A stretch of DNA of 64,000 bases. It comes from an uncultured Candidatus Rokubacteria bacterium. Lineage in GTDB: Bacteria; Methylomirabilota; Methylomirabilia; Rokubacteriales; CSP1-6. Location: contig CAVWFS010000018.1 of NCBI GenBank assembly GCA_963754315.1, positions 650,047 through 714,046 of the forward strand, in the 5' to 3' direction. The notes under the pieces are model-generated. The model was not told where the DNA came from. It worked only from the letters and a program-made list of their open reading frames with translations, and did not search any database. Within the stretch, counting starts at the first letter, position 1. Each line of letters opens with the position of its first letter. Positions 7,805-49,918 of the stretch are shown here, piece by piece. Both the position numbers and the translations under genes were made by a program.

Positions 7805-8813
7805 GTGGACGAACTGAGAAAGGACACGACGAGCGGCCGTTGGGTTCTCGTCCGTCCGTCGTCCAAGCCCAACTCCGAGAGCGAGTGTTCCTACTGCCCG
7901 GGAGCGGAGCACCTGTCCGGCCCCGAGATCGCCGCGTACCGAAAGGACGGACCCCACCCCAACGGCCCAGGGTGGACGGTCCGGGTCGTACCGGAACGCG
8001 ATCCCTACTTTCGTATCGAGTGGGAGCTCGCGCGCGAGGGGATCGGTATGTTCGACATGATCACGCCTCGGGGGGCCAGCGAGCTGATCATCGAGTCGCC
8101 GACACATACCGACACCTTGGCGTCGATGGACGCCGAACACCTGGAGTCGATCCTCTGGATGTATCGGGACCGTATCATCGACCTCAAGCGCGACGGGCAG
8201 ATCCGCGACATTCTGATCTCGCGTCACCACAAGAAGCCGGGGGTTCCGAATCACCACCCGTACTCGCGGGTGTCAGCGATCCCCATCGTGTTCGATGCGA
8301 CCCGCCGAGAATTGCGGGAGGCGCGCGAGTACTACCAGTACAAGCGCCGATGCCTCTACTGTGACATCCTCCGCCAGGAGGTGGGGGCCGAGGAACGTCT
8401 TGTCCGTCTCACAAAGTTTTTCGCCGTCATCATCCCCTACGCCGCCCGCACCCCCCTGGAGACGTGGATCTTACCTCGACGTCATGGCTGCTCGTTCGAG
8501 GACGCCGTCAATCCTGAGACGACTGCAGACCTGGCCCGCCTGCTGTCAGGGTTCTTTCGCGCGCTGGCCACCGGGTCTGGAAGACCCGAGTTACGAGCTG
8601 GTCCTTCACAACGCTCCCAACATTCGTTCGCGAGTCATGCAAGGGGACTGGTCGAGTATCTACGATGACTATCACTGGCACATCGAGGTCATGACTCAAC
8701 TGGAGAGCGCCAATCGAGTGGGAGGCATCTACGTCAACGAGACGCCACCCGAGACATCGGCCGCCGCGCTGCGCGGTGCCTGGCAGGCGACCGGGGACGG
8801 TCTTCAGGGGTAA
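7805..8813 (+). CDS. GalT-like HIT-family nucleotidyltransferase (galactose-1-phosphate uridylyltransferase/ADP-glucose phosphorylase-like). The reading frame is broken by a +1 frameshift near 8572-8580, so this is either a sequencing error or a pseudogene.
   Basis: N-terminal CSYCPG Zn-motif and central YHWHIE (HxH) motif lie in two different frames: ORF 7688..8668 and ORF 8295..8813. Probable GTG start at 7805, just after the TPR gene stop. Confidence 0.65.
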
Positions 8814-12664: not shown

Positions 12665-12702
12665 GCCAACGGGCCCGGCTGACCGGGCCCGTTGGCATTT
12701 TT
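12665..12702 (+). terminator. perfect 14-bp GC-rich hairpin followed by a T-tract between iscA and hscB (intrinsic terminator or attenuator inside the isc operon).
   Basis: GCCAACGGGCCCGG-CTGA-CCGGGCCCGTTGGC followed by ATTTTT. Confidence 0.6.
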
Positions 12703-12724: not shown

Positions 12725-13316
12725 ATGGACTACTTCGAGATCTTCGGGCTGCCCCGGCGGTTGGCCGTTGACGAGAGCAGCGCTGCAGCGGCGCTTCTAT
12801 GAGCTATCCCGCCAGCATCACCCTGACTTTCATCTGGGTGCCTCGCCGGAGGATCAGGCGCGGGCCCTGAGCACATCGGCCCTGGTCAACGCCGCGTACC
12901 GCGCTCTGCGTGACCCCATCCGACGGATCGAGTATCTGCTTCGCCTCGAAGAGGGACGCGACGCGGAGGAGGGTGAAGCGGTCAAGCCCAAAGCCAGCCC
13001 TGGTCTGCTCGCCGAGATGTTCGAGATCCAGGAGGCACTCCAGGAAGCCAAGGGGGGCGGCGTCGACGAGGCCGGACTGGAGGCTCTGCGTCGGCAACGC
13101 GACGAGCTGAGCGCGCGCTGCCGCGCCGAGGAAACGCGCCTACAGGAGTCGCTTTCGCAGGCGTGGGACGCCGCCCCGCTCGTCGAGCGACCCCGAGCGT
13201 CGGCCGCTCTGCGGGAGGCGCTCGCCACTCGCGCCTATCTGCGGACCGTCATCGATGATCTCAGCCAGGTCCTGGGGGAGGAACAAGAGCCGCATGTCGC
13301 GCATCATCGGCATTGA
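12725..13316 (+). CDS. hscB: Fe-S co-chaperone HscB (J-domain). The N-terminus is encoded in a different frame from the rest of the gene, with an apparent +1 frameshift near 12776-12785.
   Basis: MDYFEIFGLPRRLAVDES (ATG 12725, frame 2) continues as ALQRRFYELSRQHHPDFH (HPD motif) in frame 0, which is ORF 12714..13316. Confidence 0.8.
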
Positions 13317-19116: not shown

Positions 19117-19350
19117 CGAGGGCGTCCTGAGCGAGGTGGGGTTTGGGGGGGGGCCCGCCATTTCGGGGCCTACGAGAGCGAGCGCAGGACCGAGGGGCGC
19201 CCCGGGTAACCCGGGGCGTCCTGAGCGAAGGGGGGTTTGGGGGGCCATTTCGGGGCCCCCACGAGCGAGCGCAGGACCGAGGGGCGCCCCGGGTAACCCG
19301 GGGCGTCCTGAGCGAAGGGGGGTTTGGGGGGCCATTTCGGGGCCCCCCAA
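19117..19350. repeat. about 2.6 tandem copies of an ~87-bp GC-rich element carrying nested palindromes/hairpins (REP-like or MITE-like).
   Basis: Unit GGGGCGTCCTGAGCGAAGGGGGGTTTGGGGGGCCATTTCGGGGCCCCCACGAGCGAGCGCAGGACCGAGGGGCGCCCCGGGTAACCC is repeated directly. Contains GGGGCGCCCC, CCCGGG-TAA-CCCGGG and GGGGGGCC-ATTTC-GGGGCCCCC. Confidence 0.85.
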
Positions 19351-27520: not shown

Positions 27521-28239
27521 CCTCCCCCCGGTGGTCGGTCGTCATTCCGGCGCTGAATGAAGCCCGGCGCTTGCCTCCGTACCTCGCCCGGGTCGTGAGT
27601 TATTTCGATGCCCGGAGCGAGCCCTACGAAATCATCGTGGTCGACGACGGGAGCACCGACGACACGCTGGCCCGGGTCGAGAGCTTCGCGCGCGAGCACG
27701 GGGCCGTGCGCGGTCTTGCCTTGGCGGGCCATGAGGGCAAGGGCGCGGCCGTCCGCCGCGGCATGCTGGCCGCGGCGGGGACATACCGACTCTTTACCGA
27801 CGCGGATGGCGCGACGCCCATCGAGGAACTGGATCGTTTCGAGCCGGCCCTGGTTGCAGGAGCCGACATCGTCATCGGCTCGCGCACGGTTGGGGACGCG
27901 TCGGTAGCGGTAGTGTCTCGCTTGCATCGGTCCGCAGCGCGTAGTCTTTTCAGCTGGATGGTCAGCCGCCTCGGCCTGAAGGGCGTGTCGGATTCGCAGT
28001 GCGGCTTCAAGGCCTTCGAGGGAGCCGTGGCCGAGGCGCTCTTCGGAGCGCTTCGCACCCCAGGTCTCGCGTTTGACGTCGAACTGCTCATGCGCGCGCG
28101 GACGGCCGGCTACCACATCGTGGAGGTGCCGGTGAACTGGACCGAGCAGGCGGGTGGCAGGGTCGGCATCCTCCGGCACGGACCGTTGATGGCCCTGGAG
28201 ATCCTGCGCGTCCGGCGGCGGCTCAAGGGTTTGTCGTGA
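27517..28239 (+). CDS. family-2 glycosyltransferase (polyprenol-phosphate sugar transferase, ArnC/DPM1-like).
   Basis: VVIPALNE...IIVVDDGSTDDT...DADG motifs typical of GT2 polyprenyl-phosphate glycosyltransferases. ATGA overlap with the upstream gene. Confidence 0.8.
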   Translation: MTSPRWSVVIPALNEARRLPPYLARVVSYFDARSEPYEIIVVDDGSTDDTLARVESFAREHGAVRGLALAGHEGKGAAVRRGMLAAAGTYRLFTDADGATPIEELDRFEPALVAGADIVIGSRTVGDASVAVVSRLHRSAARSLFSWMVSRLGLKGVSDSQCGFKAFEGAVAEALFGALRTPGLAFDVELLMRARTAGYHIVEVPVNWTEQAGGRVGILRHGPLMALEILRVRRRLKGLS

Positions 28240-29394
28240 GACGGGCGCAGCGCGCGCTGGCGGTCGAGCCGTTCCTCGCCGTGGAGATCGCCGAACGCGC
28301 CCAGGCCTTGGAGCGCGGCGGCGCCGACATCGTGCACTTCGAGTTCGGCGAGCCGGATTTCCAGGCACCCTCCGTCGTGCTCGAAGCCGCCGCAGAAAGC
28401 GCTCAAAGACGGACGGACTAAGTACACGTCCAGCCTCGGTATCCTCCCGCTGCGGGAAGCCATCGCCGAACACTATCTCAGTACCTACGGCGTGGCCATC
28501 TCGCCCGATCAGATCCTGGTCACGCCGGGAACGTCACCGGCCATGCTCCTGCTCTTCGGGCACTTGCTGGATCCGGGGGACGAGGTGATTCTGAGCGATC
28601 CCTACTACGCGTGTTATCCCCACTTCATCCGGTATGCGGACGGCGTCCCGGTCTTCGTACCCATCTTCGAGGCGGATCAGTTCCAGTACCGGCCAGAGGC
28701 GATTGACCAGCAACGGGGGCCGCGGACGCGCGCGGTCCTCGTGAACTCGCCGGCAAATCCGACAGGGGCTGTCCTCAGCGCGCAGCGGATGGCGGCCGTG
28801 GCGCGACTGGCGGACCAGGAAGGTCCCTTCATCGTTTCCGACGAGATCTATCACGGTCTCAGCTACGAGGGGCGTGACCACTCGATCCTGGAGTTCACGG
28901 AGCGTGCCTTCGTCCTCAACGGGTTCTCCAAGGCGTTTGCCATGACGGGGTGGCGGCTCGGTTACCTGATCGGCCCGGCGGACCATATCAGGGCCCTGCA
29001 GACGCTATACGGAAACTTCTTCATCGCGACCAACGAATTCGTGCAGTGGGCGGGGGTGGCAGCGCTGCGCGAGGCCCACGAGGACGTTCGCCGTGCTCGC
29101 GCGATCTTCGACGAGCGGCGTCGCGCCATGGTGGCCGGTCTTCGTGAAGTCGGACTGGGGGTGGGTTTCGAGCCGACCGGGGCCTTCTACGTGCTTGCCG
29201 ACGCCCGCCGGTATACGAATGATTCGGCCCGTTTCGCCTACGAGATCCTGGAAAGGAGCCACGTGGCAGTGACACCCGGCGCTGCCTTCGGCCCTCGGGC
29301 TGAGGGATACTTGCGATTCTCCTACGCCACGTCGGTTGATCGGATTGGGGAGGGGCTGCGCCGTATCAGGCGTTTTCTGGACGATCTAGGGTGA
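28236..29394 (+). CDS. class I/II PLP-dependent aminotransferase (aspartate/aromatic aminotransferase-like). Apparent +1 frameshift near 28392-28402 splits off the N-terminal 55 codons.
   Basis: ORF 28236..28421 (IVHFEFGEPDFQAP...) and ORF 28492..29394 (NPTGAVL, SKAFAMTGWRLGY PLP-Lys region) are consecutive parts. The intervening KALKDGRTKYTSSLGILPLREAIAEHY is readable in the downstream frame. Confidence 0.8.
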
Positions 29395-39871: not shown

Positions 39872-41043
39872 AACGTCTTACCATCCTGGGCGCCACCGGG
39901 TCCGTTGGCCTGCGAGCCCTCGAGCTGGTCTCGAGCTTTCCCGAGGAGTTTCGGGTGGTTGGCCTCGCCGCGCGGGGCTCCAACATCGACCTGCTCGCCG
40001 ATCTCTGCCGCAAGTACGGACCCAAGGCGGTGGCCCTGCTCGATGAGGGGGCCGTCGATCGCCTCGCCGCCGTGCTGCCGGCTCCGCGGCCGGAGCTCCT
40101 CCGCGGGCCGGCCGGACTGATTGAGCTGGCTGGCCAAGTGGACGCCGATATCGTGATCTCCGCGCTGGTGGGGGCGGCAGGCTTGCTTCCCACCATGGCC
40201 GCCATTCGGGCGGGCCGAACGCTCGCCCTCGCCAACAAGGAAACTCTCGTCATGGCGGGCAGCCTCATGACGGCGGCCGCCCGCGCGCGGGATGTAGCGC
40301 TTCTGCCCGTGGATTCCGAGCACAGCGCAGTGTTTCAATGTCTGCAGGGGCACAACCGGCAGGATGTGCACCGCATCCTCCTCACGGCGTCCGGTGGGCC
40401 TTTCCGTAATCGGCCCAAGGACGCGTTTGAGTCCATCACCGTGGAGGATGCCCTTCGTCATCCCACCTGGAAGATGGGCGCCAAGATCACCATCGATTCG
40501 GCAACCCTGATGAACAAGGGTCTCGAGATCATCGAGGCACGCTGGCTGTTCGACCTGGCGCCTGACCGCATCGCGGTCGTCGTGCACCCACAGTCGATCG
40601 TCCACTCCATGGTCGAGTACATCGACGGATCGATCATCGCGCAACTCGGGGTCGCCGACATGGGGGTGCCTATCCTCTATGCCTTGACCTACCCGGAGCG
40701 TCGCCCCACGCCCGCCGCTCGGCTCGACCTCGCGCGGATTGGCCAGCTGACCTTCGAGGAGCCCGACACCGACCGGTTCCCCTGCCTTGCTCTGGCGCGT
40801 GCCGCCCTGACGCAGGGTGCCCGGGCCCCGGTCGTGCTCAACGCCGCCAACGAAGTCGCGGTGGCAGCTTTCCTCGAACGCCGCCTCGGATTTGCGGATA
40901 TCCCTATACTGATCGAGCGGGCTCTCTCGGCTGATCCCGGGGGAGGCTTAAACTCCATCGAAGAGTGTGTCGCGGTCGACGGTGAGACACGTCGGCGCGT
41001 GCAGGCGCTCGTCGATCAGCGTGCGGGAGGGCGATCGAAGTGA
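39868..41043 (+). CDS. dxr: 1-deoxy-D-xylulose 5-phosphate reductoisomerase.
   Basis: LTILGATGSVG, LANKETLV, DSEHSAVFQC motifs. ATGA overlap with cdsA. Confidence 0.9.
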   Translation: MKRLTILGATGSVGLRALELVSSFPEEFRVVGLAARGSNIDLLADLCRKYGPKAVALLDEGAVDRLAAVLPAPRPELLRGPAGLIELAGQVDADIVISALVGAAGLLPTMAAIRAGRTLALANKETLVMAGSLMTAAARARDVALLPVDSEHSAVFQCLQGHNRQDVHRILLTASGGPFRNRPKDAFESITVEDALRHPTWKMGAKITIDSATLMNKGLEIIEARWLFDLAPDRIAVVVHPQSIVHSMVEYIDGSIIAQLGVADMGVPILYALTYPERRPTPAARLDLARIGQLTFEEPDTDRFPCLALARAALTQGARAPVVLNAANEVAVAAFLERRLGFADIPILIERALSADPGGGLNSIEECVAVDGETRRRVQALVDQRAGGRSK

Positions 41044-42402
41044 CCACGGTCGTATCGTTCATTGTCGTCATCGGGGTCCTGATCCTGATTCACGAGCTTG
41101 GCCACTTCATCATGGCGCGGCTGACCGGGGTCGGTGTGGAGCGGTTTTCCATCGGCTTCGGCCCCGTGCTCCTGCGCTGGCGCGGCAAGGAGACCGAGTA
41201 CTGCCTGTCCGCGATTCCCATGGGCGGATACGTAAAGATGGTCGGCGAGGAGAACCCGCTCGAAGGCGGTGGGTCGGCGGCCTCCGATCCTGCGAAAGCC
41301 TTTGCCACCAAGCCCCTCTGGGCCCGCTTCCTCATCGTCTTCGCTGGCCCGGCGATGAACTTCGTCCTGGCCGCCGTGATCTTCGCCATCGTGCTCGGTA
41401 CCGTGGGCCGCCCGGTGTGGCCGGCCGTGGTGGGTAAGGTCGCACCCGGGGGACCAGCGGCAGCTCTGCAGAGCGGAGACCTTGTCGTGCGGGCGAACGG
41501 CGAGGCCGTCCGGAGCTGGGAGGATCTGGATCGGGTGATCGCCGCGTCGCATGGCCGCCCCCTGCAGCTTGTGGTAAAGCGGGCCGGCGTCGAGCAGACC
41601 CTGATGCTGACCCCGCGTCACTCCGTCACGCGCGATCCCATTTTCAAGGAACCGCGGGACACATGGGACATTGGGGCGGGTCCCCAGCTCACCCCGCAGA
41701 TCGGTATCGTGAACGGCGGCTCGCCGGCAGAGCGGGCGGGGCTCAAGCCGGGGGATGTCATCCTCGCCGTGTCTGGGGAACCGGTCTTCACGCCCGAGGA
41801 TCTGATGCTGGCTATCCAGAAGCGGCCCGGGCAAACGTTCGACCTCACCGTCGAACGGGGCGGGCAGCGCCAGACGCTCCCCGTGTCCGCCGAGCGCAAG
41901 ATCGACAAGAGTCCATCCGGCGAGGAGGTCGAGGTCGGCCGCATCGGCGTGTCCATCGTCACCCGGACCGTGAGGTACGAGCCCTATTCGCCGTTGGCCG
42001 CCGTGTGGTACGGCGGCGTACGGACGTGGGATATGACGGCTGGTGACGGTGAAGGGGTTGTGGAAGATTGTCTCCCGCCAGATCGACTCCTCGAACATTG
42101 GTGGTCCCATCCAGATCGCATCCGAAGCGGGTCGGCAGGCTCAGGAAGGGCTTGGTTCCCTCGCTCTCTTCACGGCCATCATCAGCGTGAACCTGGCCGT
42201 GCTGAACTTGCTGCCGGTGCCGATGCTCGACGGTGGCCACTTGTTGTTCTTCGTCATCGAAGCCGTGCTGGGCCGACCGCTGTCGCTCCGGAAGCGCGAG
42301 GCCGCTCAGCAGCTCGGATTCGTGCTCCTGGTCCTCCTCATGGTGTTCGCGCTCTACAACGACCTTGTGCGGATTGACGCCTTCAAGTTCCTACGCCAAT
42401 AG
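41040..42402 (+). CDS. rseP: RIP zinc metalloprotease RseP (site-2 protease). Apparent +1 frameshift near 42036-42040 separates the last ~119 codons.
   Basis: HELGHFIMA (HExxH), PDZ domain, then ORF 42043..42402 carrying the NLLPVPMLDGGHLLF motif. Junction TWDMT/LVTVKGLWK aligns with E. coli RseP. Confidence 0.85.
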
Positions 42403-47073: not shown

Positions 47074-47336
47074 GCGAACCTCAGCGCACCTGTGTCGGCT
47101 GTCGTCAGGCCCGGCCCGCGCGAACCCTGATTCGGCTTGTTCGCCGCCCATCGGGTGAGGTGGTGGTGGATTCGACGAAACGGCTGCCCGGGCGCGGTGC
47201 CTATCTCTGCCCGGGGCCTGCATGCCTCGCGCGCGGTCTCGAGCGTGGCCGTCTCGCGCACGCGTTCCGGAAACCATGTGAGGTCAGGGTCAACCTGGCC
47301 GAGGAGGTGAGCGAGCGGTGGCCGCAGCCAAGGTGA
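47070..47336 (+). CDS. ylxR: YlxR/RnpM (DUF448) RNA-binding protein.
   Basis: RTCVGCRQ...GRGAYLCP motif. Conserved position between nusA and infB. GTG start overlaps the nusA stop. Confidence 0.7.
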   Translation: MSEPQRTCVGCRQARPARTLIRLVRRPSGEVVVDSTKRLPGRGAYLCPGPACLARGLERGRLAHAFRKPCEVRVNLAEEVSERWPQPR

Positions 47337-49918
47337 AGGTGATCGAACTCGCCAAGGAGCTTGGCGTGACCAGTAAGGACCTGATGGTCGCCGCCGAGGA
47401 GATGGGGCACAAGGGCGTGCGCGCCATGACACCCCTCGATAGCACGCTCGCCAACGCCCTCCGCGTCAAGCTCGGTAAGGGCCGCGATCTGCCCGAAGAG
47501 CCGAAACCGAAGCGTCCCGCCCGGGTCAAGACAGCCGAGGGCAGCCGAGGGCAGTGGAGTTGTTGACGGGGCGCCGGCCAAGATCGTGCGCCCGCGACGG
47601 CCGACACAAGCCACCGAGGAAGAGCCGCTCGAGCTACGACCGGCCGCGACCATTGTGAAGCCCAAGCCGGTCCCTGTTAGCGTTGAACCTCTCGTCGAGC
47701 CCACCCCCGCCGTCAAGTCCGAGGTCAAAACGGAGCCGGAGCCTCCACTTGTGGAGCCTGTCACGCCTGCTGTGGTTCCAATCGAACCCCTTGTCTCTCG
47801 CCCCCTCCGGTACCTCCTCCCCCGCCCAGGAAGCCGGAGCCGAGGATCGTGCCTTTCCGGCCGAGCGAGCGGCCAGGTCCCACGCCCCCCGCCCGCACAC
47901 CACGCCAACCCTTTGGACCGTTCTCACCTCCGCGCGTGACGATGGGTCCGCCGAGGCCGGCGGCACCGCCTCTGCCTCCGCGTCAGCCTCGTCCGTCTGC
48001 GGAGCCCGTGCCGGTGGTCGCACCGGCCGCTGCAACCTTGTCGCCGACGGCTGCCATGCCATCACCGTTGGCCGCCCCGCCCCCATCGACGGTCGTGGAG
48101 GCTACCGCTCCACCGGTCGTTCCCGAGACCCTCGTCGCCCCGGCTGCCGTCACCGAGACGCCGCCAGTCGAAGTCAAGCGCGAGCTCATCAGGGTGCCGG
48201 AGTCGGTCACCGTGGCCGAGTTGGCCGAAAAGATGCGCCGCAAGTCGGGTGAGGTCATCAAGGCTCTGCTCGAGCTCGGCGTCATGCGGATGGTCAACGA
48301 CTTGCTCGATCCGACCGAAGCCAAGCTGGTTGCCGACAAGTTCAACGTGGACCTCGAGATTCGCTCGATGGAAGGTGGCCTGGTGGAGGAGGACGAGGTC
48401 GATCCCGCGCAGCTGACCCTGCGTCCGCCCGTCGTCACGGTCATGGGGCACGTCGACCACGGCAAGACCTCTCTGCTCGATGCCATCCGGCGCACCAAGG
48501 TCGCCGAGAAGGAGTTTGGTGGCATCACCCAGCACATCGGCGCCTACCAGGTGATGACCTCGCACGGCAAGGTAACCTTCCTCGACACGCCAGGTCACGA
48601 AGCGTTCACGGCCATGCGCGCCCGCGGAGCCCAGGCGACCGACATCGTGATCCTCGTGGTAGCCGCCGACGACGGCGTGATGCCGCAGACCGTGGAGGCG
48701 GTCAGCCACGCCCGAGCCGCCAACGTCCCGATCATCGTCGCTGTCAACAAGGTCGACAAGCCCGAGGCCGACCCGGATCGGGTCAAGCGCGAGCTGGCCA
48801 ACCTCAACCTCGTTCCCGAGGAGTGGGGCGGGCAGACCATCTACGTACCGACATCGGCCAAGAGAGGGACGGGTATTGATCAGCTCCTGGAAATGACTGC
48901 GCTGCAAGCAGAAGTCCTCGAGCTCCGGGCCAACTCCAACCGTGCCGCCAAGGGTGTGATCATCGAGAGCCGTCTCGATCGTGGACGCGGTGCGGTGGCG
49001 ACGGTGCTGATCCAGAATGGGGCCCTGCACGAGGGCGACGCTGTCGTGGTCGGTTCACACTCGGGGCGCATCCGGGCCCTGGTCGATCCGGCGGGCAAGA
49101 AGGTCAAGACGGCGGGGCCGTCCGATGCGGTCGAGGTCCTGGGGCTGTCCGGGGTGCCCTCGGCCGGCGACGTTCTCGTGGCAGTCTCCGACGAGCGCAA
49201 GGCGCGGCAGATTGCGGGCATGCGTCAGGATCGCGACAAGTCCAAGACAAAGGCGGCGACCCGCATCACCCTGGAAGGGCTGCACAAGCAGATTCAGACG
49301 GGCGAGGTGAAGGAGCTGCGGCTGATTCTCAAGGCCGACGTGCAGGGCTCGGTGGAGGCCCTGACTGAGTCACTGGAACGACTGTCGACGGACGAAGTCA
49401 AGCTGAAGGTCATTCACGCCTCGGTGGGGGCGATCAACGAGAGCGACGTCATGCTGGCGTCGGCCTCCAACGCGATCGTCCTCGGCTTCAACGTCAAGGC
49501 AGAAGGCAAGGCGGCTACCCAGGCGCAGTCCATTGGGGTTGACGTGCGCCACTACAACGTCATCTACGAGGCCATCAACGACCTGAGGGCAGCCCTGGCT
49601 GGTCTGCTGGCGCCGGAGATCCGTGAGACGATCATCGGCCGCGCCCAGGTACGGCAGATGTTCAGCATCTCCAAGCTGGGCCCGATCTGCGGCAGCTACG
49701 TGGAGGAGGGCAAGATCACCCGAACCGGACGCGTCCGCGTCAAGCGGGGGACCGAGGTGTTTGGCGAGGGCACCGTCTCGTCCCTCAAGCGCTTCAAGGA
49801 CGAGGTGCGTGAGGTGGCGGCTGGCCTCGACTGCGGAATCGGCGTCACCGTCAGCGGGGTACAGGCCGGCGACGTCCTCGAGATCTTCAGCACCGAGGAA
49901 GTGGCGCGCACGCTCTGA
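47318..49918 (+). CDS. infB: translation initiation factor IF-2. As sequenced, the gene is interrupted in the low-complexity linker by a 10-bp tandem duplication (+1) and a second 1-nt indel (-1) about 260 nt downstream.
   Basis: Three consecutive ORFs are involved. 47318..47566 is the IF2_N domain ([17 protein letters not shown]). 47586..47939 is the Pro/Ala/Val-rich linker. 47849..49918 carries the G-domain ([24 protein letters not shown]) and the C-terminal domains. Confidence 0.85.
47533..47552 (+). repeat. perfect 10-bp tandem duplication (AGCCGAGGGC x2) inside infB that shifts the frame and leads to a TGA 12 nt later.
   Basis: Direct reading of ...ACAGCCGAGGGCAGCCGAGGGCAGTGG... Removing one copy fuses ORF 47318 with ORF 47586. 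Confidence 0.8.

Follow-up and report, generated by a model that had tools for sequence, protein, structure and literature searches.

Two small insertions that split infB in a Rokubacteria/Methylomirabilota metagenome contig are very probably consensus errors

The window, by which we mean the whole stretch of 64,000 nucleotides analysed here (G+C content 65.5%), carries infB within the conserved cluster proS-rimP-nusA-ylxR-infB-DUF503-rbfA-nrnA-truB on the + strand. The order of the cluster is the same in two more distant relatives (L001 and L002), in the same-species contig_4295 (L003) and in a short-read outgroup contig (L086), and it is the neighbourhood expected of a bacterial IF2 gene. 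The start codon of infB is GTG 47318 (+ strand), and the N-terminal reading from this codon is that of the IF2_N fold. The parts of the gene as it stands in the deposited sequence, and the features found within them, are the following:

47318..47566, + strand: infB 5' fragment, an 82-aa ORF with a GTG start that holds the first IF2_N subdomain and the start of the linker; deposited separately as P0126
47532..47554, + strand: perfect tandem repeat, C AGCCGAGGGC AGCCGAGGGC AG (TRF: period 10, 2.3 copies, 100% match)
47535..47536, + strand: first lesion, one extra C that shifts the infB frame (CC in the window, a single C in contig_4295 and contig_43192)
47537..47793, + strand: out-of-frame linker segment with an IF2-like reading in the +1 frame relative to the start codon (tblastn frame 3)
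47687..49918, + strand: infB 3' part in the original frame, comprising the remainder of the linker, the second IF2_N, the G domain, EF-G_D2, the IF-2 domain and the C-terminal domain
47794..47799, + strand: second lesion, two extra nucleotides (TC) that return the reading to the start-codon frame ((TC)3 in the window, (TC)2 in four same-species assemblies)

Read from GTG 47318, the ORF encoding IF2_N closes at TGA 47564-66, as stated in a first-pass annotation made from this sequence. Together with TAG 47678 and TGA 47684, this gives three start-frame stops inside the shifted segment, and the conclusion of that annotation that no full-length IF2 is encoded as written is correct. The linker reading resumes in the +1 frame, where the tblastn match in frame 3 lies, and ends …PIEPLV; it returns near 47800 to the start frame, which is also the frame of the G domain. 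Two indels therefore do restore the frame jointly, with the return to the G-domain frame about 260 nt downstream as had been described, and the intervening 258 nt lie out of frame and include stop codons. With three stops in the frame that is read between the lesions, the pair does not amount to a functional compensated frameshift. The frame of the 3' part is open from 47687 and its first start codon is GTG 47849, and the deposited 3' CDS (P0018, 634 aa) starts at GTG 48014. P0018 and the 82-aa P0126 are both recorded on one contig of 920,187 bp (NCBI/ENA).

As written, no one ORF runs unbroken from the N1 subdomain through to the C terminus; such an ORF appears when three nucleotides are deleted: removal of C47535 and TC47794-95 gives an ORF of 865 aa without stops. 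A Pfam search with the repaired 865-aa protein identified IF-2 (PF11987; 1e-42), GTP_EFTU (3e-36), EF-G_D2 (1e-26) and IF2_N (7e-18, in two stretches), which is the domain set of a bacterial IF2. Aligned without gaps to the intact IF2 of contig_43192 (L095), also 865 aa long, the repaired protein shows 98.7% identity; its identity is 99.8% with P0124, the C-terminal fragment from contig_4295, and, in end-to-end alignments with 2–3 short gaps, 94.3% with P0001 and 93.3% with P0002. Its closest full-length homologues are annotated IF-2 proteins of Rokubacteria/Methylomirabilota (859–872 aa, 82–94% identical), the alignments covering the whole repaired query. Seven of the seven more distant relatives (P0001–P0006 and P0123) are full-length and in frame, with 859–872 aa, and none of the relatives compared has a split infB as a conserved state.

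Several further searches concern the wider setting of the gene. With P0018 as query against genome contigs, distant IF2s of 47–56% identity were retrieved, and there were no Rokubacteria among the matches listed. Two DNA scans of metagenome contigs gave one distant match, L087; L001 itself was also not recovered in them. Neither the Rfam scan nor the promoter scan gave a match; two sites resembling terminators, where 0.6 would be expected by chance, were considered irrelevant.

The repeat at the first lesion had been described as AGCCGAGGGC present twice head-to-tail, and the two copies are indeed found at 47533-47542 and 47543-47552. The repeat is not a chance occurrence, because none of 200 sequences simulated from the window with a first-order Markov model contained a perfect period-10 run of 13 matches. 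It had been taken for a 10-bp unit, originally single-copy, that was freshly duplicated; the relatives contradict this: an imperfect 9+10-nt repeat, GCGAGGGCA GCCGAGGGCA (19 nt, encoding A-R-A-A-E-G), is already there in the same-species assemblies. Contig_4295 (L003/L096) and contig_43192 (L095) both read ACAG-CGAGGGCAGCCGAGGGCAGT, encoding T-A-R-A-A-E-G-S, and in the DNA alignment the more distant homologues L001 and L002 read ACA CCGAGGACA GCCGAGGGCA GT, encoding K-T-P-R-T-A-E-G-S. Two adjacent units, 9+10 nt encoding T-[PA]-R-[TA]-A-E-G-S, occur in every relative compared, which answers in the negative the question, posed earlier as a check, of whether the repeat is single-copy in the closest infB relatives. 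Compared with the same-species assemblies the window is longer by 1 nt, not 10, and it is the extra C at 47535/36 that turns the imperfect 9+10 repeat into a perfect 10+10.

Two arguments built on the fresh duplication change accordingly. A 10-bp microduplication had been considered atypical of base-calling error, but what actually sets the window apart from relatives is one base inserted into a near-repeat that was already there, and this is a typical consensus error. Reads with one copy of AGCCGAGGGC, which had been proposed as a refutation, would be an unsound one: since intact relatives have 19 nt at this position, such reads are not expected even for an intact gene. Gene conversion homogenising the two repeat copies was considered and is unneeded, as the same-species assemblies differ by one C only. 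One further sequence with an N-terminal ORF of 81 aa (L005/P0128; coverage 0.9) is chimeric past window position 47527 and is uninformative on this lesion.

At the second lesion, the surplus TC lies within GTCTCTCG (47793-47800), which abuts the first C5 run (47801-05) on its 5' side. The window reads CTTGTCTCTCGCCCCC where contig_4295, contig_43192, the JGI contig L097 and the short-read SPAdes contig L004 read CTTG--TCTCGCCCCC, and the C5 runs are identical in the window and in all four of these same-species assemblies. The 1-nt deficit that had been placed in a C5 run is instead a 2-nt surplus, TC, absent from four independent same-species assemblies. Nor are the two indels of opposite sign, as had been suggested: both are insertions, +1 and +2, with a net gain of 3 nt. 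Neither insertion occurs in the other assemblies that cover the respective site (n=2 for the first lesion, n=4 for the second).

Private indels were defined as sites at which all covering sister assemblies (2–4) agree against the window. Eleven such sites were identified, namely six frame-breaking insertions in genes, one intergenic site (12679) and four in an intergenic 87-bp tandem repeat. The frame-breaking insertions outside infB, identified by sister comparison, are:

8576, + strand: private +1 insertion, frameshifting a GalT-like gene (7805-8810)
12778, + strand: private +1 insertion, frameshifting hscB (12725-13313)
28392, + strand: private +1 insertion, frameshifting a class I/II aminotransferase gene (28236-29391)
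42038..42039, + strand: private +1 insertion, frameshifting rseP (41040-42399), GACGGCTGG compared with GAC-GCTGG

Proteins of the sister assemblies and the outgroup served as tblastn queries to test for gene splits. Of about 60 genes lying between 1.9 and 59.6 kb, five (infB, the GalT-like gene, hscB, the aminotransferase gene and rseP) are split across two frames and the remainder are colinear, so that the contig carries frame-breaking indels comparable to those of infB in other conserved genes. All six frameshifting lesions are insertions and lie outside long homopolymers, a pattern that fits a noisy consensus and that replication slippage would equally give. A possible error mechanism, the retention of both SNP alleles, was noted at the first lesion, where CCG in L001 and GCG in L003 correspond to GCCG in the window, and the same pattern is seen at rseP (GGT in L086, GCT in L003, GGCT in the window). 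As a general mechanism this is suggestive, but it was set aside as it leaves the TC insertion unexplained.

The same-species set used for these comparisons consisted of four long contigs belonging to a single ENA series (ERZ25039531, ERZ25039541, ERZ25039555 and ERZ25039565) together with short contigs. The long contigs have Flye-style names and range from 164 kb to 1.66 Mb. Outside the noisy stretches of contig_4295 this contig is 99.3% identical to the window, and contig_43192 is 98.6% identical; with about 0.3–1% SNPs and a sequence difference of about 0.5–1% relative to the window, the sister assemblies represent other strains or populations and not replicates. They hold private indels of their own, unrelated to those of the window: 10 in 49 kb covered by contig_43192, 22 in about 56 kb of unique coverage by contig_4295, 32 in 20 kb covered by contig_27198 and 43 in 20 kb covered by contig_119374. 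These break dxr, pnp, tsf, rpsB, a rpoD-like gene and purB, and infB of contig_4295 has a different frameshift, an extra C at window position 48110 that divides it into ORFs of 310 and 574 aa. Lesions private to one assembly, with sisters that each carry others, are what is expected of artefacts. In the short-read outgroup contig L086, 21 of 21 tested genes are intact. The JGI contig L097 has a 79-nt out-of-frame deletion in the same infB linker, and other anomalies besides. At the end of contig_43192 the isc region is present twice, in inverted orientation, and the second copy is full of broken genes, which points to a foldback artefact.

Of the explanations that compete with consensus error, the one given by the first-pass annotation, in which a single-copy AGCCGAGGGC underwent a de novo 10-bp tandem microduplication (+10) and a C5 run then lost 1 nt (-1), would account for the copies being perfect and adjacent, and its net +9 restores the frame; taking out one 10-nt copy and adding a C does open the frame. 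The alignments refute it all the same. Relatives show the 9+10 structure, every one of them already having two copies, and deleting 10 nt loses three conserved residues, whereas the 1-nt repair gives the protein stretch exactly as in contig_43192 and contig_4295; at the second site, the C5 runs being the same in four same-species assemblies, TC is the sole difference. Programmed recoding would involve a +1 shift near UGU UGA C (47558-47567) and then a -1/+2 shift near 47794-47805; alternatively, phase variation by slipped-strand switching at the repeats would toggle a long isoform. A +1 shift at the UGA would yield exactly the normal protein length, and the sequence has UGA-C at the stop, a weak stop context reminiscent of prfB, with GGAG just upstream. 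Even so, we regard these readings as extremely improbable: the frameshifted structure occurs in no relative (two covering the first lesion, four covering the second, and seven distant homologues in frame), by inspection tRNA-Cys on UGU cannot re-pair on GUU, inspection of 47787-47823 revealed no X XXY YYZ slippery heptamer, and two independent events would be needed in one gene. Repeats of two to three units are, moreover, too short for efficient phase variation.

The remaining alternative is that both insertions are real slippage mutations (C to CC in the near-repeat, (TC)2 to (TC)3) and that infB is truly split. This is unlikely, as is its corollary that the cell makes an 82-aa N1 (IF2_N) peptide and a truncated IF2 from an internal GTG/ATG at 47849, about 47939 or 48014. 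Each lesion is a copy of neighbouring bases within a repeat context, the outcome expected of slippage, the linker of the independent contig L097 is also out of frame through its 79-nt deletion, and GGAG lies 9–12 nt upstream of GTG 47849. According to the Pfam analysis of the repaired protein, the 3' ORF retains the second IF2_N and all catalytic domains. In E. coli, the N1 subdomain lies in Domain I, which binds NusA. E. coli produces shorter IF2 isoforms from internal in-frame starts, and chromosomal deletion of its Domain I slows growth by only 15–41% (PMC12297416). Against a real split, four other genes of the window are likewise broken by private insertions of this type, unrelated private indels are as frequent or more frequent in the sisters, and a split gene is conserved in none of the relatives. 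Once a first frameshift had arisen, selection would not favour a second one that brings back the frame ahead of the putative internal start. The putative Shine–Dalgarno sequence and GTG sit inside the conserved protein motif KPEPRIV, where conservation is at the protein level because synonymous changes occur there among relatives. A population with a naturally split infB, producing a free 82-aa N1 peptide and an IF2-beta-like factor from an internal start, is accordingly quite unlikely; were it real, it would show that cells in the wild can do without the long IF2 isoform, the 79-nt deletion of L097 would hint at the linker as a recurrent site of loss, and the lesions would constitute a natural experiment on the dispensability of the IF2 N-terminal domain.

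Judged from the sequence comparisons, the disruption of infB very probably reflects consensus errors in a Rokubacteria/Methylomirabilota MAG built from long reads. We infer that the insertions are most likely technical and not true strain mutations, and that the contig most likely derives from long reads, in line with the 920-kb length of the source contig and with sisters of up to 1.66 Mb. The pattern of private indels across the window and its sisters is the signature of a noisy long-read consensus, and such indels are known to produce gene calls with shifted frames in MAGs from long reads (PMC9262707). The breakage of five housekeeping-type genes in 58 kb, essential infB included, would be implausible for a free-living cell. 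An assembly artefact had been among the options raised by the first-pass annotation and is a live one. In the scenario of consensus error, an ordinary, intact-type bacterial IF2 gene would have gained two small insertions when the consensus of a noisy metagenome assembly was built from long reads. One would be the extra C at 47535/6 in the existing imperfect 9+10 repeat, by accident perfecting it, and the other the extra TC in the short (TC)n run at 47794-99. Because the insertions add 3 nt in total, the 258 nt separating them would lose the frame and run into stops, and gene-calling programs would report infB as two ORFs, of 82 and 634 aa.

If the errors were independent, a compensating pair 260 nt apart would be somewhat unexpected, a mild coincidence. 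By rough estimate, with six frameshifting indels in 58 kb the chance of two falling within 260 nt is about 0.13, and about 0.5 of such close pairs would compensate the frame. The pairing of the lesions does not show selection for frame restoration. The infB observation is real in the deposited sequence and was mis-described, the gene being a standard IF2 of known kind. It matters mainly for quality control, since about 8% of the window genes are split by 1–2-nt insertions, and analyses of gene content, pseudogenes and protein length in this MAG and its sisters will be biased unless the assemblies are polished or frameshift-corrected. It also demonstrates that an apparently perfect microduplication can come from a single-base error within an existing near-repeat.

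Three known systems bear comparison with the locus. The programmed +1 frameshift of prfB (RF2) resembles it in that a UGA-C stands in frame a short way past the frame change, with an SD-like GGAG upstream; here, by contrast, the arrangement is unconserved in relatives, the P-site codon cannot re-pair and a second compensating shift is required. The E. coli isoforms IF2-alpha, -beta and -gamma come from the same gene, with an N1 subdomain, flexible linker, N2 subdomain and G domain, and Domain I of the E. coli protein is dispensable but beneficial (PMC12297416). A truncated product from an internal start in the window would resemble IF2-beta/gamma; the E. coli isoforms, however, arise from one intact ORF, whereas here the long form is abolished as written and the internal start is putative. 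The third comparison is with the indel or frameshift consensus errors of long-read metagenome assemblies (Nanopore or PacBio CLR), as measured by IDEEL-type tests. Nanopore errors are classically deletions in long homopolymers, whereas the six frameshifting lesions here are 1–2-nt insertions in short repeats or non-homopolymer sequence. As in such assemblies (PMC9262707), small private indels split conserved genes into adjacent ORFs, the indels differ between assemblies of the same organism and are absent from the short-read assembly of a relative, and the contigs are very long (0.5–1.7 Mb) for a soil-type uncultured lineage.

Four window-private insertions of +1, that is, sites where all covering sister assemblies agree against the window, were identified in addition to those in infB. 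Each of them breaks one conserved gene into two frames, and none of the sister assemblies covering these sites (2–4 per site) contained the insertion:

8576, private +1 insertion in a GalT-like gene (7805-8810)
12778, private +1 insertion in hscB (12725-13313)
28392, private +1 insertion in an aminotransferase gene (28236-29391)
42038, private +1 insertion in rseP (41040-42399)

At two private insertions, the one in rseP (42038-42040) and one in the proline-rich linker of infB (47534-47536), the window resembled both alleles of a one-substitution site among relatives. The infB site reads CCG in L001, a contig of a more distant relative, GCG in L003 (contig_4295, same species) and GCCG in the window; the rseP site reads GGT in the short-read outgroup contig L086, GCT in L003 and GGCT in the window. 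This both-alleles pattern may be a hint of a consensus error arising from a mixture of strains. The hscB insertion lies 100 nt from a private deletion of 1 nt at 12679, in the intergenic region between iscA and hscB, forming a second close pair of indels of opposite sign in the window; mismatches were also observed near this pair. Private indels were also present in an intergenic repeat:

19157-19347, 87-bp tandem repeat upstream of dinB (2.2 copies, 96%)

This repeat holds four window-private indels as well as a GC-rich palindrome. Its copy number seems to differ in contig_43192, because the BLAST match splits there and dinB is shifted onward by 168 nt relative to its position in contig_4295.

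The sister contigs contained irregularities of their own. In contig_4295 (L003/L096, 1.66 Mb), infB carries a separate frameshift, an extra C in CTCCCACC at window-equivalent position 48110, and a 3-kb stretch encoding pnp and an M16 peptidase (L003 16589-19408) showed 4–10% mismatches and dense indels against the window. The independent JGI contig L097 of the same species lacks 79 nt of the infB linker (about 1670-1690, corresponding to about 47518-47597 in the window), a deletion that, as assembled, removes the tandem repeat of the linker and puts infB out of frame, resulting in ORFs of 86 and 607 amino acids; nusA of this contig, as assembled, has an in-frame deletion of 24 nt. Contig_43192 (ENA ERZ25039531) contains the isc gene cluster twice, in opposite orientations (L088 and L090) near the contig end. 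Many genes in the terminal copy are broken, and the inverted duplication therefore probably arose during assembly, as a foldback or chimeric artefact.

Within the otherwise variable infB linker, the motif RKPEPRIVP[FY]RPSERP… (47824-47945) was retained at homologous positions across Rokubacteria relatives (full-length IF2 homologues P0001-P0006), the underlying DNA changes being synonymous. An in-frame GTG at 47849, preceded by GGAG, also falls within this region. The conserved IF2 linker motif may represent a binding site.
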